The notes beneath the pieces are model-generated. The model worked only from the letters and a program-made list of their open reading frames with translations. It had not been told where the DNA came from and did no database searches. A program made the position numbers and the translations under genes. A DNA stretch of 63,864 nucleotides, counting the filler, from Caldilineae bacterium (GTDB lineage Bacteria > Chloroflexota > Anaerolineae > DTLA01), in NCBI GenBank assembly GCA_037446815.1. It is 5 parts of 5 records of this genome, joined end to end, with 100 filler letters (N's around TTAATTAATTAA, not from the genome) between each part and the next. Parts side by side here need not be neighbours in the genome. Positions count along the whole stretch, not along the records: positions 44,635 to 59,116 come from JBBIHX010000064.1; 4 more parts are not named here. One strand, written 5' to 3'. Numbering within the stretch: the stretch's first letter is position 1; the number at the start of each line of letters is the position of its first letter. Below are positions 108-63,864 of the stretch, piece after piece.

Positions 108-131
108 ACCAACACAAGATGGAACCGAATC
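108..131. mobile_element. Isolated terminal inverted repeat (right end) of the 150-bp MITE family
   Basis: accaacacaagatggaaccgaatc is the reverse-complement match of the end seen at 14757-14780. Confidence 0.75.
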
Positions 132-14756: not shown

Positions 14757-14906
14757 GACTCGGTTCCATCTTGTGTTGGTGAACCGTAGGCGCACTCTCC
14801 TCGTGTGTCATTGCGAGCGGAGCGAAGCAATCCCACGCCCCGGAGATTGCTTCGGGCACTGCGTGCCCTCGCAATGACAGCCACCCGCAGACGCTGGAAC
14901 CGAATG
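14757..14906. mobile_element. 150-bp MITE copy
   Basis: TIRs gactcggttcca.../...tggaaccgaatg; 8-bp flanks cggggcag / cggggcgc. Confidence 0.85.
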
Positions 14907-20140: not shown

Positions 20141-20290
20141 CATTCGGTTCCAAAGTCTGTTGGTAGCCGTCATTGCGAGGGCACGCAGTGCCCGAAGCAA
20201 TCTCCGGGGCGTGGGATTGCTTCGCTTCGCTCGCAATGACACACGAGGAGAGTGCGCATGCGTTTCACCAACACACGATGAAACCGAATC
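20141..20290. mobile_element. 150-bp MITE copy
   Basis: cattcggttccaaagtctgttggt...accaacacacgatgaaaccgaatc; flanks gcagacgt / gccgacgg. Confidence 0.85.
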
Positions 20291-29721: not shown

Positions 29722-29749
29722 GATTCGGTTCCAAAGTCTGTTGGCACCT
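29722..29749. mobile_element. MITE left end truncated at scaffold end
   Basis: gattcggttccaaagtctgttgg. Confidence 0.75.
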
Positions 29750-32834: not shown

Positions 32835-32984
32835 AATTCGGTTCCAAAGTCTGTTGGTAGCTGTCATTGCGAGGGCGCGGAGCGCCCGAAGCAATCTCCG
32901 GGGCGTGAGGTTGCTTCGCTTCGCTCGCAACGACACACGAGGAGAGTGCGCCTACGGTTCACCAACACAAAATGGAACCGACTC
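32835..32984. mobile_element. 150-bp MITE copy
   Basis: TIRs present; flanks ccttgtcg / ccctgtcg. Confidence 0.88.
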
Positions 32985-42340: not shown

Positions 42341-42516
42341 GACTCGGCTTCATCCTATGTTGGTGAATCGCATGAACACTCTCCTCGCGTGTCATTGCGA
42401 GCGAAGCGAAGCAATCCCACGCCCCTGCTGTCACTGCGAGCGAAGCGAAGCAATCCCACGCCCCGGAGATTGCTTCGGGCGCTCCGCGCCCTCGCAATGA
42501 CACGCCCCTGCTGTCA
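42341..42516. mobile_element. Decayed MITE copy with internal duplication and one end missing
   Basis: gactcggcttcatcctatgttggt end; gtca(t/c)tgcgagcgaagcgaagcaatcccacgcccc duplicated. Confidence 0.75.
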
Positions 42517-43394: not shown

Positions 43395-43455
43395 CCGCCG
43401 GTAGCCGACCCAGGGAGGGGCCGGCCTTGGCCAACCTCCCGGAGGTCGGCTGCCG

Positions 43456-44518: not shown

Positions 44519-44534
44519 CGGCTCCGCCGATGAG

Positions 44535-44634
44535 NNNNNNNNNNNNNNNNNNNNNNNNNNNNNNNNNNNNNNNNNNNNTTAATTAATTAANNNNNNNNNN
44601 NNNNNNNNNNNNNNNNNNNNNNNNNNNNNNNNNN
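44535..44634. other. Artificial scaffold linker
   Basis: N44-TTAATTAATTAA-N44. Confidence 0.95.
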
Positions 44635-44870: not shown

Positions 44871-44884
44871 GCGCGGGGCCGTTT

Positions 44885-44913
44885 TTGACACCGCACGGCT
44901 TTGGGCATATACT
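44885..44913 (+). promoter_or_regulatory. sigma70 promoter of the ABC exporter operon
   Basis: TTGACA-17-TATACT. Confidence 0.7.
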
Positions 44914-45017
44914 TTGCCCCGCTAAATAATCTGTGCAGCCCGCGAGAGCCCGCCGCGTACCGGCCTCCCTCGCAAGGTGGAACCCGCTGCACTTCGCACG
45001 CGAGGAAAAGAGCGTCT

Positions 45018-49189: not shown

Positions 49190-49268
49190 GGGGGCGGCGC
49201 GGAACGGGCCGGGCGGGGGCAGAGCGACTCGGGTTCAAACTGCCCGGCCTGCCTCACGCCGCTCCCTT

Positions 49269-49380
49269 TCCGCGCAATCCGCGCCATCCGTGGATGCAAC
49301 CCTGGAGATGCTCCGCCTTCGGCTCAGCATGACATAATGGGCCTGTCATTCTGAGCGGCGAAGCCGCGAAGAATCTCGTA
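49269..49380. repeat. Repeat mosaic (ATCCGCG-type plus inverted GTCAT(T/G)CTGAGC pair)
   Basis: tccgcgcaatccgcgccatccgtggat; ggctcagcatgaca...tgtcattctgagcggcgaagccgcgaagaatctc. Confidence 0.7.
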
Positions 49381-49486
49381 GAGCAANNNNNNNNNNNNNN
49401 NNNNNNNNNNNNNNNNNNNNNNNNNNNNNNNNNNNNNNNNNNNNNNNNNNNNNNNNNNNNNNNNNNNNNNNNNNNNNNNNNNNNNN

Positions 49487-51199
49487 CTACTGGACAAACA
49501 GAGGCACGAAGCGAAACTGCGTAACGTCCACCAATCCCCGATCCGTCAGTTTCAGGGACGGGATGACCGGCAGCGCCAGAAAACTCAGCGCCGTGAACGG
49601 GTCGCGCAAAGCCGACCCCATGTCCGCCGCGGCGTGCAGCAACTCGCGAAACGCCCCGCCCACCTCCTCCAGCGGCCGGTCCGACATGAGGCCGGCGATG
49701 GGCAGCGGCAACTCCGCCCGCACCTCCCCATCCTGCACCGCCACCAGCCCCCCGCGCATCTCCACCATCCGCTCCAGCGCCACTTTCATATCCTCGTCGC
49801 TGGCCCCTACCAGGATGATGTTGTGGGAGTCGTGGGCCACCGAAGAGGCGAGCGCGCCGCGCTTCAGCCCGAACCCGTGCACGAACCCCAGCCCCACGTT
49901 GCCGGTGGCCTGATGGCGCTCTACTACGGCGATCTTCAGCACATCGCGCTCCGTGTCCGAAACGGCGAACTCGCCGTCGGTTTTCGGCTCCATGATGAGT
50001 TGCTGCGTTACGATCTGGCCGGGGATGAGTCCGATGACGCGGATGCGGTTTCCGCGGGCGGGGACCGCAAAAGAGATGCTCGGCGGGTGCACGTTCATGG
50101 AACTGCGCACGATGGCCGGGTTGTGGGGCGACAGGGTGCCGACAAAGCGCCCGCGCTCGGCCACAATCTGCCCGCCGCGCAGCACCTTCAGGATGCGGAA
50201 GTCCATGAAGTTGTCAAAAACCACCAAATCCGCGCGCCACCCGGGTTTGATGCCGCCCCGGTCCGAGAGGCCAAAGTATTCCGCCGGGTTCAACGTCGCC
50301 ATCTGGATGGCGGTGATGGGGTCCAGCCCGCTGGCGATGGCCGTGCGGATGATGCTGTCCAGGTGGCCCTCCTCCAGCAACTCCAGCGGGTGGCGGTCGT
50401 CGGTAACGAACATGCAGCGGCGGGCCGTGGCGGGCGTAACCAACGGCAGGAGGTCGCGCAGATTGCGGGCCGTAGACCCCTCGCGGATCATGATGTACAT
50501 GCCGTTGCGCAGTTTCTCTTTGGCCTCCTCCAGCCGCGTGCATTCGTGGTCCGAACCCACGCCTGCGGCGATGTAGGCCATCAGGTCGCGGCCCGAAAGG
50601 CCCGGGGCGTGGCCGTCAATCCGCTTGCCCGCGCCCGCCCGCACCTTGGCCATCACCGACGGCTCGCGGAACAGGACGCCCGGGTAGTTCATCATCTCGC
50701 CCACGCCTTGCACCCAGTTCTCCTTCAGCAGAAGCGCCAAGTCCGACGGCAAGATGCGCGCGCCCGACGTCTCCATGTCTGTCGCCGGCACGCACGAGGG
50801 CACCATCACGTACACGCTGAAGGGGTTGCGCTTGCTGGATTCCAGCATGTACCGAATGCCGTCAAACCCCAGCACATTGGCGATCTCATGGGGATCAATG
50901 ACCACGGATGTCGTTCCATGAGGCAGCACGGCCCGCGCGAATTCGGGCACGCGCAACATGGAACTCTCAATGTGCACGTGGCCGTCAATGAACCCAGGGC
51001 AAACGTATGCGCCGTCCAGGTCTATCTCCACCTTGCCGCGGTAGTCGCCCAGGCCAGCGATGCGCGTGCTGGCGATGGCGATGTTGGTAACGTGAATATC
51101 GCCCGAGAAGACGTTCACTACCCGCGCGTTCTTCAGCACCAGGTCGGCCTCGTCCTCGCCGCGCGCGATCCGAATCAAGTCCTCCAGCGTAATCGCCAT
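49487..51199 (-). CDS. ade: Adenine deaminase
   Basis: DGHVHIESS, DPHEIANV, GEMMNYPG, DGHAPG, SDHEC, VAHDSHN, LPIAGLMS; alternative GTG start at 51205. Confidence 0.95.
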   Translation of the reverse strand: MAITLEDLIRIARGEDEADLVLKNARVVNVFSGDIHVTNIAIASTRIAGLGDYRGKVEIDLDGAYVCPGFIDGHVHIESSMLRVPEFARAVLPHGTTSVVIDPHEIANVLGFDGIRYMLESSKRNPFSVYVMVPSCVPATDMETSGARILPSDLALLLKENWVQGVGEMMNYPGVLFREPSVMAKVRAGAGKRIDGHAPGLSGRDLMAYIAAGVGSDHECTRLEEAKEKLRNGMYIMIREGSTARNLRDLLPLVTPATARRCMFVTDDRHPLELLEEGHLDSIIRTAIASGLDPITAIQMATLNPAEYFGLSDRGGIKPGWRADLVVFDNFMDFRILKVLRGGQIVAERGRFVGTLSPHNPAIVRSSMNVHPPSISFAVPARGNRIRVIGLIPGQIVTQQLIMEPKTDGEFAVSDTERDVLKIAVVERHQATGNVGLGFVHGFGLKRGALASSVAHDSHNIILVGASDEDMKVALERMVEMRGGLVAVQDGEVRAELPLPIAGLMSDRPLEEVGGAFRELLHAAADMGSALRDPFTALSFLALPVIPSLKLTDRGLVDVTQFRFVPLFVQ

Positions 51200-51256
51200 T
51201 TGCACCCTCCTAGATTAGCACAAAGCGACCTCGTGGGGTCGCCTTGTTGCCTCCTG

Positions 51257-51406
51257 GAGTCGGTTTCATCTTGTGTTGGTGAACCGTAGGCGCACTCTCC
51301 TCGTGTGTCATTGCGAGCGAAGCGAAGCAATCCCACGCCCCGGAGATTGCTTCGGGCACTGCGTGCCCTCGCAATGACAGCCACCAACAAACTTTGGAAC
51401 CGACTC
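51257..51406. mobile_element. 150-bp MITE copy
   Basis: gagtcggtttca...tggaaccgactc; flanks gcctcctg / gcctccct. Confidence 0.88.
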
Positions 51407-51460
51407 GCCTCCCTCTCCCACTCGCACCCCCGCGTGCGACGCCACTGACCTTTCCAGGCC

Positions 51461-52339
51461 CTACCCCCGGCCGAACAGGCGCTGCCAAAACCCCCTCCGT
51501 GCGGCCCGCTGTGCCGGCGCCTGCGCGGGCAGCGATAGGCCGGGCAGATAGTTTGCCGCCGGCGCATCGGGAATCACGCGAACCCTGCCGGCCTCCAGCG
51601 CGAACGCCGGCGTGTCGCGCAGGATGTGCTCCAGCGGCATGGGCGGGCAGGTGTCGTGATAGATGCGCCTGGAGACGAGGGCGGGCATGAGCCGAAAGAG
51701 CGGATACGGCCTGCGCTTTCTGGCCAGGAGTTCCCGCGCGGCCTGGGCCACCTGCGCGTCCCGTCCGGCGACCCGCTCCGAGTCCTGGCGGCCTGCGGGT
51801 TCCAGAAACGCGTGGTAAATCCCCTCTTCGCCGTCCGTTACCTCAAACAGGAGGCTATCGCCGGCGCGGCACTCCATGTCCTGAAACCACTGGGCCAGCG
51901 CGTAAGATGGGGCGATGCCCGCCGCGCCCTCGTCAAGCCACAGGATGGGCTGCGAGAATAGCGGCCCCTGCTCCAGATACAGGTGGCAGGGCCGAGCAGC
52001 GGCGTGGCGCGGCGCGAATAGAAACGGGAACAGGATGTAGCACGCGTCCGGCCCGAGCCGCAGAGACCCCTCGTCCAGTTCCCGCTGCGACAGGATGTGG
52101 CGAACCGTCGCGCCCTTGACGAACCAGAGCACCCAGGCGTAGTGATCGTCGCCCACGGGCACCACCAGGGGGCTGTTGCGCAGGGCGTTGCGCACGGTGC
52201 GGGCCGGCTGAGCCACGGGCCGCACGGGCATGTCCAGGACTGCGGCAAGGACATCGGCAAAGGACAGGGGAGCATCGGCCGGACGCAGGGCGTCGCACAC
52301 AGCCCGCGCGTATGAGATTCGCCGCTCCGCCCGTGTCAT
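51461..52339 (-). CDS. Hypothetical protein
   Basis: RBS GGAGG, co-oriented downstream of the flavin oxidoreductase gene, plausible composition. Confidence 0.65.
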   Translation of the reverse strand: MTRAERRISYARAVCDALRPADAPLSFADVLAAVLDMPVRPVAQPARTVRNALRNSPLVVPVGDDHYAWVLWFVKGATVRHILSQRELDEGSLRLGPDACYILFPFLFAPRHAAARPCHLYLEQGPLFSQPILWLDEGAAGIAPSYALAQWFQDMECRAGDSLLFEVTDGEEGIYHAFLEPAGRQDSERVAGRDAQVAQAARELLARKRRPYPLFRLMPALVSRRIYHDTCPPMPLEHILRDTPAFALEAGRVRVIPDAPAANYLPGLSLPAQAPAQRAARRGFWQRLFGRG

Positions 52340-52356
52340 GCCATTCCTCCGATGGT

Positions 52357-53355
52357 CTACGCCTGCGACGAGAGCACCCGTCGCGCCTTGGCCACCCAGT
52401 CGGGGTCGGCCAATTGCGCCCGCCCCACGGCGATGAGGTCCACCAGCCCGTCGCGTATGACGCGCTCCGCATAGTCGGGATCGCGCACGTTGCCCACGCC
52501 GATGGTGGGGATTCCGGCGGCGCGCCGCACCCTTGCCGCCAACAGAACGAAATAGCCCTGTTCGGTGAATCGGTCTCGGCCCGATCCTCCCAGGCCGCCC
52601 GACACGTCCAGGATGTCCACCCCCGCGCCGGCCAGAATCGGCGCGATGCGTTCGGCGTCGTCGGCGGTGATGCCGCCCGGCGTCAGGTCATCCGCCCCGA
52701 ACCGGTACAGCACCAGCATCGCCTGGCCGACGGCCTCTCGCACGGCGCGGATGACCTCGCAGGGGAATCGCAGGCGGTTTTCCAGCGAGCCGCCGTAGTC
52801 GTCGGTGCGGCGGTTGGTAACGGGGGACACGAACTGCCCCAGCAGGTAGCCATGCGCGCCGTGAATCTCCACCGCGTCAAAGCCGGCCTGCTGGGCGCGC
52901 CGCGCCGCATCGGCATAGTCGCGGGTGAGTTGCTGAATCTCCTCCCGCCGCAGCGCCCGCGGGGTCTCGGCGTCGCCGGGAACGGGGAGCGTCCACGCGC
53001 TGATGGGCTGGGCGCCGATGAGGTCGCGGGTTGTGCGCGCGCCGGCGTGAGTGATCTGAAGGCAGGCCACCGCGCCCGCCGCCTTGATGGTCTGGGCCAG
53101 CCGCGCCAAGCCGGGCACCAGCGTGTCGTCGTACACGCCCAACTGTCGGTCTGACATGCGGCCGTCGCGGCGGATGTACGTATGCTCCACGATGAGCAGG
53201 CCAGGCCCGTCCACGGCGATGGCCTCGTAGTGGCGCAGGTGCCAGTCGGTAACCTCGCCGCGCGGGGTGGCCCGCTCCGTCGCAATCGGCGGCATGACGA
53301 TGCGATTTCTCAGGCGGGTGCCTCGCACCTCCAAGGGATCAAACAGACTCGCCAT
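52357..53355 (-). CDS. NADH:flavin oxidoreductase (Old Yellow Enzyme family)
   Basis: LRNRIVMPP, EIHGAHGYLL, RRTDDYGGSLENR; RBS AAGGAGG. Confidence 0.92.
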   Translation of the reverse strand: MASLFDPLEVRGTRLRNRIVMPPIATERATPRGEVTDWHLRHYEAIAVDGPGLLIVEHTYIRRDGRMSDRQLGVYDDTLVPGLARLAQTIKAAGAVACLQITHAGARTTRDLIGAQPISAWTLPVPGDAETPRALRREEIQQLTRDYADAARRAQQAGFDAVEIHGAHGYLLGQFVSPVTNRRTDDYGGSLENRLRFPCEVIRAVREAVGQAMLVLYRFGADDLTPGGITADDAERIAPILAGAGVDILDVSGGLGGSGRDRFTEQGYFVLLAARVRRAAGIPTIGVGNVRDPDYAERVIRDGLVDLIAVGRAQLADPDWVAKARRVLSSQA

Positions 53356-53374
53356 AGCGCCCCTCCTTGGAAGC

Positions 53375-53403
53375 ATTATAGCGTCTCCTGCCGTGGGCGT
53401 CAA
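53375..53403 (-). promoter_or_regulatory. sigma70 promoter
   Basis: TTGACG-17-TATAAT. Confidence 0.7.
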
Positions 53404-53415
53404 TGGGTGCAGCAG

Positions 53416-53682
53416 GATTCGGTTCCAAAGTCCGTTGGCGCGCACTGTCATGATGAGCGTAGGGGCAACGCATGCGTCGCCCCAAAGGGCGAAGAATCCC
53501 GTAGAGCAAATTGCCAAATTTGCTCTACTTTGCCCAATCCGTGCCATCCGTGGATACAACGCCGGAGATGCTTCGCCTTCGGCTCAGTATGACAGGGGGA
53601 GGACAACGTGCGACGCACGTGAATGCCCTCACCCCAGCCCTCGCCCGCCGAGGCGGGAGAGGGGGCGCTTGTGTCATTCCGG
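53416..53682. repeat. MITE left end followed by a mosaic of GTAG-, ATCCGTG-, GTCAT- and CCCTC-type repeats
   Basis: gattcggttccaaagtccgttgg; gtaggggcaacgcatgcgtcgcccc; gtagagcaaattgccaaatttgctctac; ggctcagtatgaca; ccctcacccc. Confidence 0.75.
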
Positions 53683-53772
53683 TGGACACAATGCGCCCGT
53701 TGCGGAATGGCCCGCCTTGTGCACCTGCCCAGGCGAGGCTATAATAAGGCCAACTCGGCAAGGAGGATTGCC

Positions 53773-54144
53773 GTGGACGGAAGACAATTCACCGTGGGCG
53801 CAATCGTGTTCGCCCTCATCTGTTGGCTGACCCTGGCGGCGGTGGTCGTGGGGTTCTCGCCCGAAGAGCCGCTCATCTACCTGTTCTACGCCCTGCTGGG
53901 CCTCGGCGTCAGCAGCACGCTGATGCCCATCGTGTACTACCTGCACGTCCGATTCGGCGACGGCAGGGAGAACCCGCGCTGGTTCCGGTACATCCGCCAG
54001 AGCCTTTGGGTCGGCGCGCTGGCGGCATTCTACCTGTGGCTCAACACCCTGCGCGCGCTCAGCGTGCCGGCGCTTCTGCTCGGCATCTGCATCGCCGCCC
54101 TGGTGGAACTGATTATCCTGCGCCCAGCCAAGACGGAGGGATGA
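53773..54144 (+). CDS. Four-TM membrane protein directly upstream of selA
   Basis: RBS AAGGAGG and GTG start; four hydrophobic segments; stop 1 nt before selA ATG. Confidence 0.75.
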   Translation: MDGRQFTVGAIVFALICWLTLAAVVVGFSPEEPLIYLFYALLGLGVSSTLMPIVYYLHVRFGDGRENPRWFRYIRQSLWVGALAAFYLWLNTLRALSVPALLLGICIAALVELIILRPAKTEG

Positions 54145-54145
54145 T

Positions 54146-55534
54146 ATGGCCGACAAGAGCGCGTTGGAAGCCCGCCTGCGCCAACTTCCCAGCGTGGATC
54201 GGCTGCTCCAGGCCCCGCCGGTACAGGAGTGGATTGTGGCGTTCGGCCACGATTTGGTCGCCGAGGCGATTCGCGAGGCCCTGGACGAAGCGCGGGGCCG
54301 CGTGCTGGCGGGGGAGGAAACGCCCCCTGCGGCCTCGGTGCTGGCGGCTGCCGGCGCGCGTCTGGAGAGCATGGTAACGCCCACGCTGCAGCACGTGATC
54401 AACGCCACGGGCGTCGTCATCCACACCAACCTGGGCCGCGCCCCGTTGAGCCGCGCCGCGCGCGAGGCGATGGAGCGGGCCGCCCGCGGGTACACGAACC
54501 TGGAGTTTGACCTGGAGGCGGGCACGCGCGGGTCTCGCTACGTCCACGCCGTGGGGCTCCTGAAGCGGCTGACGGGCGCCGAGGACGCCCTCGTGGTGAA
54601 CAACAACGCGGGCGCGGTGCTGCTGGCCCTGAGCGCCCTGGCGGCGGGCCGCGAGGTCGTCATCTCCCGCGGCCAACTGGTGGAAATCGGGGGCGGATTT
54701 CGCATCCCCGACGTGATGCGCCAGAGCGGCGCGCGCCTGGTGGAAGTCGGCACCACCAACCGCACGACCGTGAAGGATTACGCCGGGGCCATCTCGGCGG
54801 AGACCGCGCTCCTCCTGCGCGTGCACACGAGCAACTTCCGCATCATCGGGTTCACGCACCAGCCGAGCCTGGCCGAACTGGTGGATTTAGGCCACAGCCG
54901 CGGCCTGTCGGTGATGGATGACCTCGGCAGCGGCACGCTGCTGGACACGGCGCAGTACGGCCTGGCCCACGAGCCGATGGTGCAGGAGAGCATCGCGGCG
55001 GGTGCGGACGTGGTTACCTTCAGCGGCGACAAGTTGCTGGGCGGGCCTCAGGCGGGGTACATCGTCGGCAGGCGCGACCTCATCGCCCGGATGCGGACGC
55101 ACCCGCTCACCCGCGCGCTGCGCGTGGACAAAGTGGCCATCGCGGGGATTGAGGCCACCCTGCGGCACTACCTGCTCAACGAGGCCACGCGCGAGGTCCC
55201 CGTCTGGCGCATGATCGCGACGCCCGCCGACACGCTGCGCAAGCGGGCGCGGGCCTGGGCGCGGCGATTGGCGGCTGCGGGCCTGGACGCGACCGTCATC
55301 CGCGGGCAGTCCACGGTCGGCGGGGGCTCCCTCCCAGGCGAGACGCTCCCCACCTGGCTGCTGGCCCTGGCGGTTCCTTCGCCCGATGGATTCGCCCGTG
55401 CGCTGCGCATGGGCAAGCCCGGCATCGTGCCGCGCATTGAAGAGGATCGCCTGCTGTTTGACCCGCGCACGGTCATGCCCGACGAGGACGAGGCGCTGCT
55501 CAAAGGCATCCTCGCGGCGTGGAGCGCCCTCTAG
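54146..55534 (+). CDS. selA: L-seryl-tRNA(Sec) selenium transferase
   Basis: VINATGVVIHTNLGRA, VNNNAGA, SRGQLVEIGGGFR, EVGTTN, FSGDKLLGGPQAG, GGGSLP. Confidence 0.97.
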   Translation: MADKSALEARLRQLPSVDRLLQAPPVQEWIVAFGHDLVAEAIREALDEARGRVLAGEETPPAASVLAAAGARLESMVTPTLQHVINATGVVIHTNLGRAPLSRAAREAMERAARGYTNLEFDLEAGTRGSRYVHAVGLLKRLTGAEDALVVNNNAGAVLLALSALAAGREVVISRGQLVEIGGGFRIPDVMRQSGARLVEVGTTNRTTVKDYAGAISAETALLLRVHTSNFRIIGFTHQPSLAELVDLGHSRGLSVMDDLGSGTLLDTAQYGLAHEPMVQESIAAGADVVTFSGDKLLGGPQAGYIVGRRDLIARMRTHPLTRALRVDKVAIAGIEATLRHYLLNEATREVPVWRMIATPADTLRKRARAWARRLAAAGLDATVIRGQSTVGGGSLPGETLPTWLLALAVPSPDGFARALRMGKPGIVPRIEEDRLLFDPRTVMPDEDEALLKGILAAWSAL

Positions 55535-55546
55535 CGGCGCGGCTGG

Positions 55547-56503
55547 CTAGGGCTTGGCCAGCGAGTCCAGCCACGCGCGGATTTCGGGATCGTCGGCGAA
55601 GTCCGCGCCCAGGGCAATCGTCTTGCCGCTGTACGATACGACCTCTCCCGCCTCGTTGACGTGCAAGGTCAATTGCCCAATCCACTCGCCCTGGTAGCCC
55701 GCCTGGACGAGGATCGTGCCATGCGTGGGCTCGCGAAACGGCTCGGGCAGCAGCACGCCCGGATTGCCGCCCACAATCGCGGCAATGCCCGGAACACTCG
55801 CGGCGAGTTCCCGGTCCTGCTGGAACCCCAGATTTGAGCAGACGATGATGATGTCGGCCTGGCCGGCCAGGTCCGACATGGTGCGGCGCACCGATTCCAC
55901 CGGGTCTGCGACCAGCACCGGCACGCGATTGCCCGGCGGCAGAAACGCCAGCAGGTTCTTGCTGGTAACCCCGATGACCGCAACGCGGTGCCCGGCCATC
56001 TCCTTGATGACATAGGGCCGCGCGAACAGCGTGTTGGTGCCGCCCACGTACACATTCGCCGAGAGCACAGCAAACCGCGCCTCGCCCATGCGCGCCTTGA
56101 TGATGTCAGGCCCCCAGCGGAAGTCCTGATCGCCCAGGGTCATGGCGTCGTACCCCAGGCGGTTCATGCCCTCAATCATCACCGCGCCTTCGGTGGAGGC
56201 GGTAAGCAACTGGTCGGTCGTGAGCGCGTTGCCGGCATCCAGCAGGAGGACGTGGGGATACTGCTCCCGCGTCTGACGGATAAAGGTGGCCCGACGGGCC
56301 AACCCGCCCTTGGGGGGCCGTCAGCCGCATGGCTCGGTGAAGCCGCGCACGTCGTTGGTGTGCAGGATGACGAGGTCAAAGGCCTGGGGCGACTGGGTGG
56401 GCGTCGCCGTGGGAGCAGGGGTTTGGGAGCCGCTCCCGCAGGCTGACAGCAGCAGCGCGGCGGCCACAAGCAGCACGATGGCGCGAAGCAGGGTTCTACG
56501 CAC
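55547..56503 (-). CDS. Putative selenoprotein lipoprotein, UshA/5'-nucleotidase N-terminal-like fold, Sec at UGA 56323-56321 (C-G-U)
   Basis: Two track ORFs in one frame: ...ILHTNDVRGFTEPCG-TGA-RPPKGGLARRAT...LLDAG; LSAC lipobox; downstream hairpin; adjacent selA. Confidence 0.82.
56273..56324 (-). promoter_or_regulatory. Candidate bacterial SECIS element
   Basis: CTGACGG pairs with CCGTCAG; inner stem TGGCCC-GTC-GGGCCA with loop G about 26 nt after UGA. Confidence 0.6.
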
Positions 56504-56536
56504 GTTGGCTCTCCCTTGCCAAAAGGTGTGGCTGGA

Positions 56537-56565
56537 ACTATACGACAGAGGCGCGAGGGTGTCAA
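56537..56565 (-). promoter_or_regulatory. sigma70 promoter of the selenoprotein gene
   Basis: TTGACA-17-TATAGT. Confidence 0.7.
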
Positions 56566-56580
56566 TTCGGCTTCGGGCGC

Positions 56581-56730
56581 GACTCGGTTCCAAAGTCTGT
56601 TGGTATTTGTCATTGCGAGGGCGCGGAGCGCCCGAAGCAATCTCTGGGGCGTGAGGTTGCTTCGCTTCGCTCGCAACGACACATGAAGAGAGTGTACATG
56701 CGGTTCACCAACGCAAGATGAAACCGACTC
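56581..56730. mobile_element. 150-bp MITE copy with perfect 8-bp TSD
   Basis: tcgggcgc | gactcggttcca...tgaaaccgactc | tcgggcgc. Confidence 0.92.
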
Positions 56731-56743
56731 TCGGGCGCGCATT

Positions 56744-56968
56744 CCCTCACCCCAACCCGCTCCCGCCACGGCGGGCGAGGGGGCGATGGGGCCATTCTGA
56801 AGCGCGGCGCGAAGCCCCCCATCCGCGCCATCCGCGTTATCCGTGGATCCTCTCCTGCGGGGGACCACCGGCTGGTCACCCCGATGTGCTCGCAACCGTC
56901 ATTCTGCGCGGCGAAGCGCCTCAGAATGACAGTTCGTGTAACCGCGAATAGCACGAATCTACGCGAAC
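56744..56968. repeat. Repeat mosaic
   Basis: ccctcacccc unit, atccgcgccatccgcgttatccgtggat, gtcattctg...cagaatgac, cgaatagcacgaatctacgcgaa. Confidence 0.7.
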
Positions 56969-57111
56969 AGGACCGGTATCCACGCATGACACACATCGGG
57001 CGGATAGTGGGGATGCGCGATTGCTGCGGGGACAGGATCTTGCGCGCAAGCCCGATGGGTGCTACAATCGGGCGGCTTCGCTCGGAGCAATGGCGCGCAA
57101 GGAGGAAGATC

Positions 57112-58218
57112 ATGAAGAAGATGTTCATCGTCGGCCCCGTGGATGTCTTTGACGACGTGCTGGCCGTGATGGGCGAGCAGGTCATAGCCCATTACGGGGA
57201 TGACTTCGTGCGCCTCTACACCGATACGCAGAACCTGCTTCGCCACGTCCTGGGCGCTTCGGGGGATGTCTTCCTGATGTCCGGGCCCGGGACGGCGGGC
57301 CTGGACGCCTGCATGGGCAGCCTGCTGCGGACGGGCGAGAAGGTGCTCATCCCCGTCAGCGGCTTCTTCAGCGATCGCCTCGTCGCTGTGGCGAAGGGGT
57401 CGGGGCTGGAGCCCGTCGTGGAGGAATTTGAGTGGGGCACGCCGGTAGCCCCCGAGCGGCTGCGAAAGCGGCTTGCCGGCGACAAGGGCATTGCGGCCGT
57501 GGCCTTCGTGCACCATGAAACCTCCACGGGCGTCCTCAACCCGCTGGAGGAGATCGTCGGCGCGGCCCACGACTTCGGCGTGCCGGTCATCGTGGACGCC
57601 GTGGCGTCGGCAGGCGGCGTTCCGGTGGACGTGGACCGCCTGGGGATTGAGTTTCTGGTAACCGTGGCGAACAAGGCGTTGGAAGCGCCGCCCGGCCTGT
57701 CCATCGTCTCGGTGAGCAAGCGGGCGTGGGAGTTGATGGACAAAGGCGGCCCGCGCAATCACGGCTGGTACCTGGACCTGCGCACCTGGCGCGACTACGC
57801 CACTCGGTGGGCCGACTGGCACCCCTTCCCCGTTACGCTGCCCACCAGCGTCGTGCGGGCGTTGCACGTCGCGCTGCTCCGCATCCAGCGCGAGGGGCTG
57901 GATCACCACTTCGCCCGATTCGCCAGGGCCGCCGAGCAGGTTCGGCAGGGACTTCGCGAGATGGGGTTCTCCATGCTGGTGGAGGGGCGCTATGCGTGCC
58001 CGGTGGTGTCGGCGGTGCGGGCGCGGCCCGAGTTCCCGGTGTCCGAGATGGCCGCCTATCTGGAACGCGAGCGCGGGCTCATGATCGCAGGCGGCATCGG
58101 CCCGCTCAAGGGCAAGATCTTCCGCATCGGGCATATGGGCAAGGCCACGACGCAGGAGTACATTGACGAATTGCTGGCAGCGGTGCGCGACTTCTTGCGA
58201 CTCAAGGGATTGGCGTAG
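57112..58218 (+). CDS. Class V PLP aminotransferase (alanine-glyoxylate/serine-pyruvate type)
   Basis: VHHETSTGVLN, IVDAVAS, ANKAL, FRIGHMG; RBS AAGGAGG. Confidence 0.9.
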   Translation: MKKMFIVGPVDVFDDVLAVMGEQVIAHYGDDFVRLYTDTQNLLRHVLGASGDVFLMSGPGTAGLDACMGSLLRTGEKVLIPVSGFFSDRLVAVAKGSGLEPVVEEFEWGTPVAPERLRKRLAGDKGIAAVAFVHHETSTGVLNPLEEIVGAAHDFGVPVIVDAVASAGGVPVDVDRLGIEFLVTVANKALEAPPGLSIVSVSKRAWELMDKGGPRNHGWYLDLRTWRDYATRWADWHPFPVTLPTSVVRALHVALLRIQREGLDHHFARFARAAEQVRQGLREMGFSMLVEGRYACPVVSAVRARPEFPVSEMAAYLERERGLMIAGGIGPLKGKIFRIGHMGKATTQEYIDELLAAVRDFLRLKGLA

Positions 58219-58257
58219 CCGATTCCGACACCGATTGGGGGGCCAAACGCGGCCCCC

Positions 58258-58980
58258 TTATGATTTGCGCCTCCCGATGCTCGCGGCGACGCGGTCCACC
58301 CACGCCTCCAACCGTCGGCGGTAGGCGAGCACGGGCACCGCGAGGCCCAGCGCACCCGCCCCCAACGCGGCCCATTGTCCCGCAGTCAGGCTGGCCGACA
58401 CATGGCCCATCCATGCGGAAGCCAGCAGGCTTGGGAATCGCCCGATGGCCGCCAAGAGCATCAGCAGCGCGATGGGGACATTGGTCAGGCCCGCCAGGAT
58501 GCTGATGGAGTCGTCGGGCACGAAGGGGAGCAGGAACAGCAGGAAGAATGTCGCCGGCCCGGCGCGCTGCACCAGGGCGTCAAATCGGGCCAGGTGCGCG
58601 GGCGGCACGACGCGTTCCACAAACGGCCTCCCCAGTTTCCGCGTCAGGCTCATCAAGACCCACGCCCCCAGCAGGACGCCGATGAGGCTGTACACCGTGC
58701 CCCAGAGCGGGCCGAACAGGTAGCCGGAGACCAGCCCCACCACCTGGCCGGGCAGCGGCGCGAGGACCACCTGCGCGGCCTGCAACGCGATGAGGGCGAG
58801 CGGCCCCGCCCACCCGAACGCCGCCACCCATTGGCGGAGCCTGTCCTGCTCGGAGACGAGTTCCAGCAGGGGCCGCCAGAAGCGAAGGAGCAGCGCGGCC
58901 ACCACGAGCACCGCGATTCCCCACGCGGCCACCCGCAGGGCGCGCTTCGTCCACCGAGGGGCTTCCTGTCGTGTGTCCAT
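58258..58980 (-). CDS. TVP38/TMEM64 (DedA/VTT) membrane protein
   Basis: QVVLAPLPG, GYLFGPLWG, LLPFVPDD, AGLT. Confidence 0.85.
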   Translation of the reverse strand: MDTRQEAPRWTKRALRVAAWGIAVLVVAALLLRFWRPLLELVSEQDRLRQWVAAFGWAGPLALIALQAAQVVLAPLPGQVVGLVSGYLFGPLWGTVYSLIGVLLGAWVLMSLTRKLGRPFVERVVPPAHLARFDALVQRAGPATFFLLFLLPFVPDDSISILAGLTNVPIALLMLLAAIGRFPSLLASAWMGHVSASLTAGQWAALGAGALGLAVPVLAYRRRLEAWVDRVAASIGRRKS

Positions 58981-59062
58981 GCCTGTAGTGTAAAACGCGG
59001 GGCGGCATGTCGTCAACATCGGGCTGGCAGGGCGAGGCCCCGCGGGCAGGGCCGCCTGGATC

Positions 59063-59116
59063 GAGTCGGTTCCAAAGTTTGTTGGTGGCTGTCATTGCGA
59101 GGGCACGCAGTGCCCG
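59063..59116. mobile_element. MITE left part at scaffold end
   Basis: gagtcggttccaaagtttgttggt...gtcattgcgagggcacgcagtgcccg. Confidence 0.8.
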
Positions 59117-59216
59117 NNNNNNNNNNNNNNNNNNNNNNNNNNNNNNNNNNNNNNNNNNNNTTAATTAATTAANNNNNNNNNNNNNNNNNNNNNNNNNNNN
59201 NNNNNNNNNNNNNNNN
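59117..59216. other. Artificial scaffold linker
   Basis: N44-TTAATTAATTAA-N44. Confidence 0.95.
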
Positions 59217-59289
59217 TGCTTCGCTTCGCTCGCAACGACACACGAGGAGAGTGTCCTTGCGCTTCACCAACACGAGATGAAACCGACTC
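59217..59289. mobile_element. MITE right part at start of next scaffold
   Basis: ctcgcaacgacacacgaggagagtg...ccaacacgagatgaaaccgactc. Confidence 0.8.
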
Positions 59290-59527
59290 CGAGCCGTTGC
59301 GGGCCAGGCAACTTCTTGGGGTTGTATCCACGAATAACACGAATCTACACGAATAGGCCACGGACGACGCGCCTCGGAGGTGCCTCGCACGTTGTCCCCC
59401 ACTCGCCTCCCCCAGCGTTTCCTATCGCGGCCGCCGGTGTTTACAGATGCGAGCGATTCCGCTATACTCGCCCCACCGTTGGGTGGTAGTCTGTCCGTTC
59501 TTCGCACACGCTGAGGAGGAAGGTCGG

Positions 59528-60957
59528 ATGAAGAAAATCCACTGGTACGACTACATCACGGTCAACATCTACTGGCTCGGCTTGACCACGGTCTCCCAGA
59601 GTTTCTCCATCATCATCCCGCTCATCGTGCAGCGGTTCGTTACCGCGGAGGAACAGGGCGGGGCCTACGGCACGATTCGTCTGTATACCCTCATGGTGGC
59701 CCTTCTCGCCCAGGCCCTGTTCGGGATGCTCTCCGATCGCAGCACCTTGCGATGGGGACGCCGCCGCCCGTTTATCTTGCTGGGCACGCTAGGCAACATC
59801 CTGGCCATCATCGCCGTTGGGGCCTCTCCCTCGTACTGGTTCCTGTTCGGAGCACTGGTCTTCTCGCAGATCGCATCCAACGCGGCCCACGGCGCGGAGC
59901 AAGGTCTCATCCCCGACCTGGTGCCCGAGGCGTATCGGGGGCGGTTTTCGGGCGTCAAGGCGATGATGGACCTGCTGCCGGTCATCATCGTCGCCCTGAC
60001 GGTTGGCCCGCTGGTAGCCAAAGGCCAGATGTGGACGGGCATTTTCATTGCGGTGGGCATCCTATTCACGGCCATGGCCATCACCATGCTGGTGCGCGAG
60101 GAGCCGCTACGGGAGCCGCCTGGCCCCCTGAACTGGGAGCCGTTCCTGCGACTCGTGGCCATGACGGCGGTCTTCCTGCTGATCATCCTGGGCCTGGGGG
60201 CGGCGGCGCGGTGGGTAGGCACGCAGGTGGTCGGAGTGCAGTCGGTGCCGCTGCTCATGCTCATCATGGGCGCGGTGGGGGCGCTGGCCATCGCGGGGGC
60301 GGTGATTGTGGGCGTATGGGCTAGTGTCCGCATCAGCATCGGCGGCGAAAATGCGCGGCGCTATCCCTCGTTCGCATGGTGGGTAGTGAACCGTTTGGCC
60401 TTCCTTGTCGGCACGACGAACCTCTCCGGGTTCGCCGTCTACTTCCTTCAGTCGCGGTTGGGCTTCCCGGGCGAAACGGCGGCCAAACCCGCGTCGCAGT
60501 TGATGATGGTGGTGGGCATCCTCATCCTGCTGTGCGCACTGCCCAGCGGGTGGCTGGCCGACCGCGTCGGGCGCAAGCGGCTGGTGGCGGCGAGCGGCAT
60601 CATCGCAGCGCTGGGCGCGCTGGTGCTCATCCTCGCCCCCAACATGACGGTCATCTACGTCGGCGGGTGCATTGTCGGCGCGGCCACGGGCATGTTCTTC
60701 ACCACCAACTGGGCGCTGGGCACCGACATCGTGCCCAAGGAAGAAGCCGGCAAGTACCTGGGCATCTCCAACCTGGCCGGGGCAGGGGCAGGAGCCGTCG
60801 GCGGATACATCGGCGGCCCCATCGCGGACTACTTCACCAAGAACGTCCCGCAATCGCCGGGCATCGGCTATGTGCTCATCTTCGCCATCTACGGGTTCAT
60901 GTTCCTGGTGTCGGCCCTCGTCCTGACGCGGGTCCGGGAGGAGTGGAAGGCGAAGGC
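59528..60957 (+). CDS. MFS transporter (3' end runs into N gap)
   Basis: GMLSDRSTLRWGRRRPF, GWLADRVGRK; RBS GAGGAGG. Confidence 0.85.
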
Positions 60958-61057
60958 NNNNNNNNNNNNNNNNNNNNNNNNNNNNNNNNNNNNNNNNNNN
61001 NNNNNNNNNNNNNNNNNNNNNNNNNNNNNNNNNNNNNNNNNNNNNNNNNNNNNNNNN

Positions 61058-61206
61058 CCCTCACCCCGGCCACTCGCTGCGGGCGAGGGAGCGTCCCCCT
61101 CACCCCAGCCCTCTCCCGACGGGCGAGGGTGTGGTCTGTCATCCTGTGGGGCGAAGCCCCGAAGAATCTCACCCCCTACCCGCGCAATCCGCGCAATCCG
61201 TGGATA
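61058..61206. repeat. Repeat mosaic
   Basis: Two ccctcacccc units, tgtcatcctg...gaagaatctc, ccgcgcaatccgcgcaatccgtggat. Confidence 0.7.
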
Positions 61207-61228
61207 CAATCCCACGGGACGCTTGGCT

Positions 61229-63190
61229 TCACGCGGAGGAGGCCGGAGGGCTGCCGTGCGGTCGCGCCCGGATGGCGTCCTTCTCCATCGCCACCAGCGC
61301 CTTCGCCACTTCCTCTATCGCCACGCGCTGCTTTCGGTACAGGTCCGACTCGCTCATGGACAGTTTGCGGGCGATGTCGCTGGTCTTCTGGCGCTGGATG
61401 AACTTCATCTCCAGGATGTTGTACAGCAGCCAGTCGGGCGCGGTGAACGACCGCTCGCCCGCAGGCCGCAGCATCTCTACCGCCTGGATGAGCATCTGAC
61501 GCAGCGCCTTCGCCGGATTCCCATTCGGCTCCTCCGTGGCTTGGCTCACCACCCGCAGTTGCGTCAGCGGGTTGCGCGTGAGTTTCGGCCCGCCCCACAG
61601 TTGGCTCAGGGCGTCCTTGACCGCCTGGCGAAACTCGGCAGCCTCCGCATCCACCCGCAGCGACGGGATGGGGGACGCTGTAGCGTATCGCGGCTCGGTG
61701 CCCCACCGCTGAATCTGTTGAATCTCCGGGGCGATCTGCTTGAGCGCCGTGAAGACCGTCTGCTGGAGCAAGCGGTCTTCCAGCGCGATCTCGGCCCGGC
61801 TCACCATCCCCTCCAGCGCCGCGATTTCCTCCTCGGCCAGCGGGTAGATGCGCGCCTCAATCCCCAGGACGCCGAGCACCGTTTGGCGGTCCTTGGAGCG
61901 GAGGGGAATCAGCCAGTAGCCGTCCTGCTCTCGGAAATTGTCGCGGCGCAGCGACAGCCGCTTGCCGTTGTGCGTGGGAGCATCGGGCGACGAAAGGACC
62001 CAACTGCCGGGGTCCAGATTCCGCAAGCACGCCTGCACCTTCGCGGCAGAGCCGCACGCCGCCTCAAGCCGCAGCCCCCCATTGCTCAGGAGGGCCACGA
62101 ACCCGCCGCCCACGCGCAACTGCTCGCACATGGTCGTGAGGATGTTTTCCAGAAACTGCGCCAAGTCGCTGCTGGTCAAGAGCCGATTGTCCAACTCCTG
62201 CAGCCACACAATCTCTTCCCTGTCCTGGCGGTAGATGAGCCGGTCAATGAAGGGTTTGCTCACGTTGATGAGCACCTGGAGGACGACGATGAGGCCCGTT
62301 ACCGAGAAGACCAGGAACGTCTCGCGGGGCAGGCCTAGGAGCCGTTGCGTATCCGGCGTGAGCAGGATGAGCGCCAGGACGCACGTGCCGACGAAAGGCC
62401 CGCGCAGCAGGTAGTGAATCAGGCTATGCTTGATAACGCGGTCGGGCGTCAGCGCGCCGAAGTACGCGACGGCATAGCCCATTACCACAATCATGAGCGA
62501 CACGGCCACGTTGCCCACGAATAGCAGGCTTTCCAGCGCCAGTTGCACCAGCGGGTCCGGGGGCAGGCTGGCCACGAGGAGGTACGGGAACGCGCCCAGC
62601 GCGGGGGCGATGAACGCCACGGCGAGGTAGGTCATGCGCCGACGGGTGGCAGGCGTGAGCGCGCGCAGCCGCGCCTGCTGGATGTTGCGCGCCCCCGTCA
62701 GCGTCGCAATGACAAAGTACAGCGCGAACAGCCAGAACAGAGGGCCGGCTTGCAGGTGGGCAAGGTTCGGATAGGTGCCCTGGCTGCGCACAACCAGGTC
62801 CGAGAAGAGCACCGCCCCCAGCGTGAGCGCGCCCAGACCATAGCCCACCACCACCCGCATCCGGCGGGGGCGGGACGCGATGCCCGTGGTGCGCGCCAGC
62901 GCGTCCGAGAAATGCAGGTACGCCGCCGGAACGAACGCGATCCCCAGCCACTGAAACCGCAACCAGCCCTCAATGGCGCGGGGGACCTCCACGTTAGCCA
63001 CCATCACATCGCCGCAGTACACGACGGCGACGAACAGCAGCAGCGCCGAAAACGCCCGCGCCACGGCATTGCGGAAGTTATGGCCCAAGACGTAGGCCAC
63101 CAGCGAGAACGCGGTCAATACGATCGCCGAAGCGACCGTTAGGTTGATAGAAGAAAGCACTTTCAGAACGAATTGCAAGTCAGGCGACAC
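61229..63190 (-). CDS. Membrane sensor-regulator: HisKA_7TM-like N-terminus, GAF-like middle, C-terminal HTH
   Basis: Multiple TM (WLRFQWLGIAFVPAAYLHF); C-terminal DIARKLSMSESDLYRKQRVAI; no kinase motifs. Confidence 0.75.
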   Translation of the reverse strand: MSPDLQFVLKVLSSINLTVASAIVLTAFSLVAYVLGHNFRNAVARAFSALLLFVAVVYCGDVMVANVEVPRAIEGWLRFQWLGIAFVPAAYLHFSDALARTTGIASRPRRMRVVVGYGLGALTLGAVLFSDLVVRSQGTYPNLAHLQAGPLFWLFALYFVIATLTGARNIQQARLRALTPATRRRMTYLAVAFIAPALGAFPYLLVASLPPDPLVQLALESLLFVGNVAVSLMIVVMGYAVAYFGALTPDRVIKHSLIHYLLRGPFVGTCVLALILLTPDTQRLLGLPRETFLVFSVTGLIVVLQVLINVSKPFIDRLIYRQDREEIVWLQELDNRLLTSSDLAQFLENILTTMCEQLRVGGGFVALLSNGGLRLEAACGSAAKVQACLRNLDPGSWVLSSPDAPTHNGKRLSLRRDNFREQDGYWLIPLRSKDRQTVLGVLGIEARIYPLAEEEIAALEGMVSRAEIALEDRLLQQTVFTALKQIAPEIQQIQRWGTEPRYATASPIPSLRVDAEAAEFRQAVKDALSQLWGGPKLTRNPLTQLRVVSQATEEPNGNPAKALRQMLIQAVEMLRPAGERSFTAPDWLLYNILEMKFIQRQKTSDIARKLSMSESDLYRKQRVAIEEVAKALVAMEKDAIRARPHGSPPASSA

Positions 63191-63219
63191 AGAGCCCGCT
63201 CCGGTCTCACCCCGCTAGC

Positions 63220-63750
63220 CTACCGCAGCGGCAGGATGAAGAACAGCCGAATCCCCTGGTTCACCGCCAACTGGTCGCTGTAGCCGCAGAAGGCGAACCC
63301 CTGCCGCTGCAAAAACGTGATCGCGGGGTGGTTGTTGGTCTCGGTCTCGGCCAGGATGCCGCTCACTCCCTGCTCCCGCGCCCATGCCGCCACCGAGGTT
63401 AGCAGGGCGCTCCCCACCCCCTTGCGGCGATGCGGCGTGTCCACCACCAGATGGCGGATGCGCGCCACCGGCTCCGATGGAACCAGGGGCATGTTGAGGA
63501 ATCCGAGAATCTCCGCCCCGTTGTCCGCCACGACGAAGCATTCATCCTGCTGCCAGCAGGTCAAGAGGCCCGTTTCCAGTCGCGGAACCCGAATCTGCGC
63601 GGTGCGCGGCAGGCGAACCGTCCGGAACGTAACCGAGATTTCGCCGCCGCGGGAACGCTCTTCCACCTGCCACACGTAGTCGGTGGAGTACGAACGGTCC
63701 ATCTCCATGCACGCATTCAAGTCCAAGAGTTCCGCACGGCGAATGCGCAT
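63220..63750 (-). CDS. GNAT N-acetyltransferase (streptothricin acetyltransferase-like)
   Basis: LVVDTPHRRKGVGSALL, ETETNNHPAITFLQRQGF. Confidence 0.85.
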   Translation of the reverse strand: MRIRRAELLDLNACMEMDRSYSTDYVWQVEERSRGGEISVTFRTVRLPRTAQIRVPRLETGLLTCWQQDECFVVADNGAEILGFLNMPLVPSEPVARIRHLVVDTPHRRKGVGSALLTSVAAWAREQGVSGILAETETNNHPAITFLQRQGFAFCGYSDQLAVNQGIRLFFILPLR

Positions 63751-63831
63751 ACGCCTCTCCAGGTCTGGGTTGTTGATACTCTCATTGTAGCATCGCAGCG
63801 GCGAAATGGCAAGCGCAGCGCAGGCGACACA

Positions 63832-63864
63832 CCCTCGCCCGCCGGGAGAGGGCCGGGGTGAGGG
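63832..63864. repeat. CCCTCACCCC-type palindrome (reverse orientation)
   Basis: ccctcgcccgccgggagagggccggggtgaggg. Confidence 0.7.

Follow-up and report, generated by a model that had tools for sequence, protein, structure and literature searches.

What brings a short non-coding repeat to the same distance from one promoter after another? The question is raised by a window of 63,864 nucleotides (the whole stretch of DNA analysed, filler included) from a Caldilineae bacterium of the phylum Chloroflexota (NCBI GenBank assembly GCA_037446815.1, the source genome), and within it by a 150-bp miniature inverted-repeat transposable element (MITE) at 56581..56730. In our assessment this element very probably belongs to a promoter-targeting MITE family that is mobilised in trans by the Mutator-superfamily transposase of a ~1.52-kb insertion sequence (IS).

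The copy under study and its surroundings contain the following features:

56581..56730, unstranded: full MITE copy (the copy under study), nhmmer full-length match C64:11948-12096
56573..56580, unstranded: left 8-bp target-site duplication tcgggcgc, 8/8 identity with the right copy
56731..56738, unstranded: right 8-bp target-site duplication tcgggcgc, 8/8 identity with the left copy
56560..56565, minus strand: putative -35 box TTGACA of an outward-reading host promoter, 15 nt off the end of MITE 56581
56537..56542, minus strand: putative -10 box TATAGT, 17-nt spacer, 38 nt off the end of MITE 56581
55547..56503, minus strand: gene served by the 56560..56565/56537..56542 promoter, with a lipoprotein-type signal peptide in its translation

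Bacterial MITEs are short, non-coding, intergenic elements of strong internal structure, which have terminal inverted repeats, a target duplication and the ends of an autonomous IS. The ends of the present element are inverted repeats of ~24 bp (GAnTCGGTTYCA, five variable bases, then TGTTGGT), at least 90% conserved at most positions and ending ...GAnTC-3'. The interior is a long imperfect hairpin made from GTCATTGCGAG...GAAGCAATC modules (described for the 56581 copy); folded as DNA, 56581..56730 reaches -32.5 kcal/mol (z -3.4). The 150 bp have no coding capacity, and the MITE sequence has no match in Rfam. Five full copies had been reported in the window, at 14757, 20141, 32835, 51257 and 56581; all are present, each 150 bp long, and an inverted-repeat terminus is found at all 11 places where a full or partial copy had been proposed.

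Insertion sites and promoter spacing

The family extends over the whole source genome, a metagenome-assembled genome (MAG) of 3.19 Mb in 265 contigs (65% G+C, 93.6% complete, smallest contig 2019 bp). An nhmmer profile built from the five window copies yields 568 matches there, 159 of them full length and 129 of these exactly 150 bp. The inverted-repeat core, searched with at most one mismatch, is present at 577 termini in 3.19 Mb and its reversed control pattern at none, and the element density is roughly one per 11 kb. Median identity is 92.7% to the consensus and 88% between pairs, by which measure the copies are apparently moderately old. The comparison set from the same order comprises 5 genomes of one genus (the source genome and four relatives). 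The relatives carry 11-62 termini each, against 577 in the source genome, and the MITE burst appears to postdate the split from these sampled relatives.

Insertion duplicates 8 bp of the target, as the window copies had suggested with flanking 8-mers that match 8/8 (56581), 7/8 (32835) or 6/8 (14757, 20141, 51257). Scored in the 145 full copies with clean 70-nt flanks, identity is 8/8 in 64, 7/8 in 31, 6/8 in 17, 5/8 in 7 and ≤4/8 in 26. It thus reaches at least 6/8 in 112/145, whereas the next 8 nt outward, used as a control, are never above 5/8; position by position, the signal is exactly eight positions wide. The same spots are also hit repeatedly. Of 153 end-to-start adjacencies, 23 are separated by exactly 8 bp, 4 by 7 bp and 2 by 9 bp, and none by 10-59 bp; a surviving promoter that is hit again leaves neighbouring elements sharing the duplicated 8-mer. 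Contigs with element-8 bp-element junctions occur in metagenome runs X1 and X2 as well, where circle junctions could be an alternative origin.

The distance to putative promoters is fixed. In the window, seven element ends (131, 14757, 20141, 29722, 32835, 42341 and 56581) have an outward -35-like hexamer at a distance of exactly 15 nt, as had been claimed for them. Genome-wide, 493 flanks were analysed without selection of the side, excluding 23 near contig ends and 61 abutting another element. A promoter was called when the -35 box matched at ≥3/6 and the -10 box at ≥4/6 including A2 and T6, with a sum of ≥8 and a spacer of 16-18 nt. By this rule 187/493 flanks (38%) have a promoter with its -35 box at 13-17 nt, 135 of them at exactly 15, compared with 0.33% of 20,000 random genomic positions; outside offsets 14-17 there are 0-6 calls per offset. 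The base profile of the same flanks carries no information at the eight duplicated positions, then T at 51-52% at positions 15-16 (background 17%), G at 44% at position 17 and a TAnnnT-type signal at positions 38-43. A secondary peak, TTG at 27, is the inverted repeat of an adjacent element.

There is no orientation bias: TTG stands at offset 15 in 37/145 left and in 37/145 right flanks, in agreement with the earlier view that either end can face the promoter. Where the spacer is 18 nt the -35 box stays at 15 in 18/24 promoters, so that the -35 box serves as the ruler and the -10 box does not. Once arrays are collapsed, 168 sites remain, of which 151 are analysable; 93 have a promoter call on one side, 4 on both and 54 on neither, i.e. 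97/151 on at least one side. An outward open reading frame (ORF) with coding-type bias in third-position G+C (GC3) begins within 40-300 nt in 127/186 promoter-side flanks, against 116/282 of the other flanks.

A minor mode is present at 3-7 nt, with promoter calls in 11/493 flanks. In two other genera of the class (genomes G251 and G249), TTGACA lies 4-5 nt from the element end and the -10 box at 27-28 nt, about one helical turn closer than in the source genome (loci L079, L087, L089, L091 and L105); judged by eye, this close register is seen in 4/9 and 2/5 flanks of the two genera. A second register one helical turn closer would favour contact with a protein, within these small numbers.

The element is mobile, and the promoters are older than its insertions. 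In 4/4 same-genus genomes the site of copy 51257 is empty, its two flanks running together across a single 8-mer. The site of copy 32835 is cleanly empty with a single 8-mer in 1/4 (G004), the other three relatives being uninformative (diverged, rearranged or at a contig end). At 56581, the promoter and its gene are conserved without the MITE in 4/4, with TTGACA kept and the -10 box present as a TATACG-type box on the displayed strand; the DNA beyond this promoter differs in the relatives, which precludes an 8-mer comparison there. The conservation of promoters at MITE-free orthologous sites indicates that they predate the insertion. For 56581 there is also a 182-nt metagenome contig (runs X3/X4), which reads from the left flank into one tcgggcgc and on into the right flank without interruption (identity 92% across 145 nt, with a one-base difference in a T run). 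We weigh this contig lightly as evidence of an empty site; in runs X1 and X2 no contig spans the 56581 insertion site. Taken as a whole, the comparisons pass the refuting test set with the original prediction, which called for one copy of the 8-mer at orthologous empty sites.

The candidate partner insertion sequence and published relatives

The source assembly contains no transposase or partner fragment by searches with Pfam Transposase_mut, NCBIfam ISKra4 and the partner protein described below, or by blastn/tblastn with 29 ISs and the protein; only termini are found. A lone terminus in contig C41 with a non-MITE interior was considered as a candidate, and has no adjoining transposase. At 93.6% completeness and with a smallest contig of 2019 bp, a multicopy IS of 1.5 kb could simply be missing. 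The lack of a transposase in the assembly, together with the length of 150 bp and the absence of an Rfam match, agrees with the prediction that the element is non-autonomous.

The repeat core, counted across 301 genomes of the class, has 9-96 matches in other genera. In two other genera, inverted pairs of MITE-type ends lie 1521-1545 bp apart, one of them with a perfect 8-bp duplication, and enclose a single ORF of 427-433 aa. Scanning one genome per species gives 50 loci, nearly all in Chloroflexota MAGs (labelled Anaerolineae, Chloroflexia, Caldilineaceae, Dehalococcoidia, Limnocylindria or Chloroflexota); three are on short contigs binned with other phyla. At 29/50 loci the IS is complete, with a length of 1514-1611 bp. 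The ends of these ISs match the MITE core at 13-15/15 specified bases, and their left (IRL) and right (IRR) inverted repeats differ from each other in the central five bases just as the two MITE ends do. Of 21 ISs with scorable duplications, 12 match 8/8; in 47 flanks, promoter calls are concentrated in the 30 nt next to the IS ends. In metagenomes the partner protein has 1698 clusters at E≤0.001, of which the best 120 lie mostly (no exact count) on contigs of ~1.5 kb. Since a multicopy IS assembles as ~1.5-kb contigs from short reads, its absence from a bin with a 2-kb floor would be explained. We infer that the mobiliser would be an IS family with MITE-type ends that is absent from the source assembly.

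The original prediction had looked for a transposase elsewhere, bounded by the same terminal repeats and related to IS256, ISLre2 or ISKra4. A divergent transposase, probably of the Mutator superfamily, is indeed carried between such repeats by the 29 ISs of other Chloroflexota, and it scores below the cut-offs of all three families. The protein has an N-terminal zinc ribbon and matches Pfam Transposase_mut (PF00872) at 24-28 bits (cut-off 21), over ~60 residues only. With NCBIfam models, partner proteins P0001 and P0002 reach sub-threshold scores for IS256 (33-38 bits) and ISH6 (27-38 bits), and have no match to ISKra4 or ISLre2 at E≤1. The top scores of nine distant full-length relatives are 63 bits for IS256, 50 for ISH6, 15 for ISKra4 and 22 for ISLre2. 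Among these nine, one matches ISKra4 (NF033572, cut-off 205 bits) at 15.4 bits, while positive controls from the same class score 205-312 bits; two match ISLre2 (NF033529, cut-off 200 bits) at 16-22 bits. Over partner proteins and relatives together, the IS256 scores of 26-63 bits miss the cut-off of 150 bits (NF033543).

An alignment of 23 sequences shows invariant D170, D233 and E353, and C254-x2-H257, an arrangement that resembles the one published for prokaryotic Mutator-like transposases. C254 lies 21 residues after D233 (range 11-19 in PMC3942029), and 120 residues separate D233 from E353 (range 99-138). A sequence search of the PDB with the partner transposase finds nothing below E 0.19. 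Against 10 same-class ISKra4 transposases, hhalign aligns only the 130 N-terminal columns (85% probability, E 6.7e-6), which comprise the zinc ribbon and the helix region as far as the first catalytic Asp; the P-L-D that the ISKra4 sequences conserve falls opposite an Asp-free stretch of the partner family. ISKra4 transposases are matched in 123/301 genomes of the class, 30 above cut-off. None was found in the order (5 genomes, one genus), and none of the 12 best ISKra4 loci of the class has MITE-type inverted repeats. Separately, a 347-aa ORF at L017 (G003:C144, 1456-2499), which adjoins a degenerate inverted-repeat match, has an N-terminal zinc ribbon and 35% identity over 88 residues to the start of the partner; it may be another transposase.

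Several published systems bear on these observations. According to Guerillot 2014 (PMC3942029), TnGBS/ISLre2 elements are inserted 15-17 bp upstream of sigmaA -35 boxes in a single orientation. The paper also describes 13 ISKra4-group ISs, of which a Chloroflexi genome supplied some, as promoter-targeted and inserted in both orientations if their repeats are nearly alike, with the putative sigmaA promoter 13-17 bp from the inverted repeat, 8-9-bp direct repeats and a terminal C. For p-MULT elements in general it gives 8-9-bp direct repeats, 18-39-bp inverted repeats and a terminal C, and for their transposases a DDE triad whose second D is followed by C/D-x2-H and whose E is preceded by a long helical insert; promoter targeting is flagged at >20% of sites, and for the promoter-targeting groups a transposase signature motif is given in which an Asp between domains N1 and N2 is conserved. 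IS256 insertion is reported there as random, without promoter enrichment. According to PMC9208149, TnGBS/ISLre2 are almost confined to Firmicutes. The MITE falls within the p-MULT ranges with its 8-bp duplication, ~24-bp repeats and ...GAnTC-3' end, and lies above the promoter-targeting threshold with 38% of 493 flanks and 97/151 sites.

Among published systems, the element behaves most like the ISKra4 group (p-MULT 4; ISKra2/4/5/6 and others), and not like TnGBS/ISLre2. The ISKra4 group shares with the MITE the offset of 13-17 bp, both orientations, 8-9-bp repeats, the terminal C and members in Chloroflexi, and shares with the partner the organisation of a small IS with one transposase gene. 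It differs in that the element here is a 150-bp non-coding derivative in hundreds of copies, and in that the partner transposase fails the NCBIfam model, its likeness in the profile comparison being N-terminal only. TnGBS/ISLre2 have a Mutator-superfamily DDE transposase, as the partner probably does, and are likewise inserted upstream of sigmaA -35 boxes. They differ in having one orientation, with IRR beside the promoter, and in including cargo-bearing elements of 1.1-52 kb, whereas here there is no orientation bias, the phylum is Chloroflexota and the ISLre2 model is unmatched. The original prediction had pointed to the ISLre2/TnGBS group; the ISKra4 group is closer in behaviour, and the partner misses the ISLre2 cut-off. 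IS256 (p-MULT 1) supplies the best-scoring curated models, with ISH6, and shares the 8-bp duplications; some of its members have an N-terminal four-cysteine zinc module. Unlike IS256, the partner scores 26-63 bits, far under the 150-bit cut-off, and the insertion of IS256 is reported as random (PMC3942029).

Other copies and repeats of the window

The window consists of 5 scaffolds (1-14919, 15020-29749, 29850-44534, 44635-59116 and 59217-63864) and is not continuous. The joins are 100-nt N linkers around TTAATTAATTAA, and further 100-N gaps lie inside scaffolds. The remaining element copies and the N runs are as follows:

14757..14906, unstranded: full copy in opposite orientation; left outward promoter TTGTTT at 15 nt, TATAAT at 38 nt
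20141..20290, unstranded: full copy; left outward promoter TTGCCC at 15 nt, TATTAT at 39 nt
32835..32984, unstranded: full copy; TTGACG at 15 nt on the left
51257..51406, unstranded: full copy in opposite orientation; left -10-like box at 37-39 nt, -35 poor
108..131, unstranded: terminal inverted repeat of a separate ~175-bp family with common ends; right-side promoter TTGACA 147-152, TATTAT 170-175
29722..29749, unstranded: copy cut by the end of scaffold C62; left promoter TTGCGG at 15 nt, TATACT at 37 nt
42341..42500 (end approximate), unstranded: one-ended remnant, internal module doubled, no second inverted repeat; left promoter TTCGCC at 15 nt, TATAAT at 39 nt
53416..53600 (end approximate), unstranded: one-ended remnant of a related family; left promoter TTGACG at 12 nt, TATAAT at 35 nt
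59063..59116, unstranded: left portion of a copy, truncated where scaffold C64 ends
59217..59289, unstranded: right portion of a copy, truncated where scaffold C201 begins
6767-6866, 14920-15019, 29750-29849, 44535-44634, 49387-49486, 59117-59216 and 60958-61057: 100-nt N runs (artificial joins or scaffold gaps)

Assemblies of this genome clearly break at the MITE repeat; copy 14757..14906, for instance, stops 13 nt before the end of scaffold C60. Six copies had been described as partial. All six termini are real, and the copies are of different kinds: those at 29722, 59063 and 59217 look partial because contig ends cut them, and their flanks across the linkers carry no information; 108-131 belongs to another family; and 42341 and 53416 are one-ended remnants. 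The flanking 8-mers of the 59063 and 59217 halves are unlike, which does not support their being one element. The 53416 remnant is out of register by its hexamer at 12 nt, and copy 51257 has its -10-like box at 37-39 nt, both as first described. The largest repeat family of the window (D1, 33 copies) was discarded, as it consists of N linkers only and is no true repeat.

Besides the main 150-bp form there are sister forms of ~175 bp and ~358 bp. The ~358-bp composite unit joins the 150-bp MITE to an unrelated segment of 210 bp that has an outer inverted repeat of its own, and the whole is flanked by an 8-bp duplication (e.g. attgtcat at C117). Composite units of the source genome lie at:

C86:5033, C93:305, C117:7110, C121:412, C172:381, C236:244 and C248:2283

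The internal module of the MITE (GTCATTGCGAG...GAAGCAATC plus complement; 56608-56681, and in every copy) is an independent small palindromic repeat. In the same-genus genomes G002 and G003 most MITE matches span positions 27-101 only, and these are often arranged in tandem with a period of ~80 bp (e.g. G002:C22:117468-117794 and G002:C56:85399-85957). The MITE seems to have captured this palindromic module.

Two further repeats accompany MITE ends. A G+C-rich repeat, CCCTCACCCC...GGCGGGCGAGGG, occupies 44635-44910 and also 1-75, 15087-15268, 53625-53681, 56743-56799 and 61075-61149; it is partly made of 40-bp tandem copies and often adjoins MITE ends. A short repeat, GTTGTATCCACGAATAACACGAAT..., at 20302-20358, 20429-20485 and 59297-59353, stands beside MITE ends in two scaffolds and occurs in a relative as well (G002 locus L068). 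As for genes, the translation of ORF 55547..56503, downstream of the 56581 promoter, resembles a metallophosphatase or 5'-nucleotidase (judged from the translation itself rather than by a database match). This ORF has an in-frame stop at codon 61 (56321-56323, minus strand), after ...TEPCG, which could reflect a pseudogene, an assembly error or a recoded codon. The long ORF 15540-17570 contains five internal ~390-bp repeats (families D10-D15) and looks like a tandem-domain surface protein.

Alternative explanations, mechanism and significance

Two explanations dispense with promoter-guided transposition altogether, and we give both very little credence. If insertion were random and selection purged harmful copies, an apparent promoter preference could arise, as intergenic insertions upstream of genes are the least harmful; the 54/151 sites without a promoter call, and copies that are not young (median 92.7% identity to consensus), are in line with such a process. 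Selection cannot, however, yield single-base precision, such as 135 of the 187 calls falling on 15 nt itself while offsets other than 14-17 receive 0-6 each, nor does it account for 23 tandem junctions of exactly 8 bp and none at 10-59 bp. It is just as improbable that the 150-bp unit is no transposon and instead a conserved host cis-regulatory module (such as an operator, an enhancer or an insulator) or has an outward promoter of its own, for all that a fixed promoter distance, strong structure and presence at a large share of promoters would suit one. Both promoter boxes, -35 and -10, are external to the conserved unit, where the copies are otherwise unrelated in sequence, and the same promoters occur without the unit in relatives. 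Also against a module are the 8-bp duplications, the use of both orientations and the existence of an IS that has these ends and a transposase; as the origin of the copies a module is refuted by the empty sites.

The other two explanations accept a mobile element. In one, which we consider unlikely though a serious contender, the transposase recognises promoter DNA itself, either the -35 TTG or a stretch that is bent or melts easily, instead of bound RNA polymerase or sigma. In its favour, it is the -35 hexamer that fixes the spacing, T, T and G give the strongest signal, and what hhalign matches to ISKra4 is the N-terminal, DNA-binding part of the protein. Yet a bare TTG is too common to explain the correctly spaced -10 boxes in 187/493 flanks, and the mode ~10 nt closer, in two other genera and in 11/493 flanks here, suggests docking on one helix face beside a bound protein; neither point is decisive. 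We infer that the transposase senses the promoter by way of RNA polymerase or sigma bound there, and not from DNA alone. Slightly less probable again is that the mobiliser is an ordinary member of ISKra4 or ISLre2/TnGBS, with a transposase that is not new. The behaviour is identical to that of the ISKra4 group in offset, orientations, repeats, terminal C and occurrence in Chloroflexi (PMC3942029), the hhalign comparison with 10 ISKra4 transposases reaches 85% probability (E 6.7e-6), and such transposases are common in the class (123/301 genomes). This has to be set against P0001 and P0002, which are without an ISKra4 or ISLre2 match, against relatives that score 15 and 16-22 bits for these families as compared with 63 for IS256 and 50 for ISH6, and against the 0/12 ISKra4 loci with MITE-type inverted repeats.

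A promoter-targeting MITE family mobilised in trans by the partner IS remains the preferred explanation, in support of the original interpretation, and the following points weigh against it. All promoters here are predicted from sequence, and the rule used calls none on either side of 54/151 analysable sites; the downstream-gene test relies on crude ORF and GC3 rules. The 182-nt empty-site contig has a depth of 2.4 and a 35-nt right side within another repeat, and X3 and X4 are possibly one data set filed twice. Neither the source assembly nor the four same-genus genomes contain an autonomous copy or fragment, so that trans-mobilisation rests on the shared ends only. The IS spacing is looser, with modes at ~5 and 13-17 nt from only 47 flanks. 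Family assignment is by weak matches to hidden Markov models, and the AlphaFold model (23 sequences) is poor, with a mean predicted local distance difference test (pLDDT) score of 50.8.

In the mechanism that we propose, the MITE would consist of the IRL-type and IRR-type ends of the ~1.52-kb IS around a captured palindromic repeat module, and would be moved in trans by the IS-encoded 427-433-aa Mutator-superfamily DDE transposase with its N-terminal zinc ribbon. The transposase would cut with an 8-bp stagger, leaving an 8-bp duplication around each insertion. The target would be set by position relative to a sigma70-type promoter and not by the sequence that is cut: the element end would be placed 15 nt upstream of the -35 hexamer, as measured from the -35, with either end facing the promoter. 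The promoter would survive and the same spot could be hit again, giving head-to-tail arrays whose neighbours share the 8-mer. The putative promoters probably keep their function after insertion.

Promoter-guided Mutator-like transposition is known; what is new is the MITE form, its scale (577 termini) and the distinct transposase lineage. Full-text searching, with most subscription journals outside its coverage, found no literature on MITEs at a fixed promoter distance. Tentatively, and with rather more doubt than confidence, we propose that the transposases may form an unclassified Mutator lineage confined to Chloroflexota, scoring nearer to IS256/ISH6; that docking may be quantised, at 15 nt here and ~5 nt in two other genera, through contact on one face of RNA polymerase; and that the MITE, which at ≥168 sites would replace the DNA upstream of about -50, may act as an insulator or terminator.

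Promoter docking has so far been known only from TnGBS, ISLre2 and ISKra4, and promoter-guided transposition is a rare case of a bacterial transposase apparently reading the transcription machinery, by a mechanism that is unsolved. Hundreds of independent insertions by one element expose its single-base offset, the -35 ruler, free orientation and re-targeting, and a 427-aa transposase with 24-bp ends offers a compact system for testing contact with RNA polymerase or sigma. The MITE repeats also explain why assemblies break at promoters. For this uncultured Chloroflexota lineage each MITE copy points at a -35/-10 pair and so serves promoter annotation, and a shared, structured 150-bp sequence abutting -50 of many promoters raises the question of global effects on transcription.

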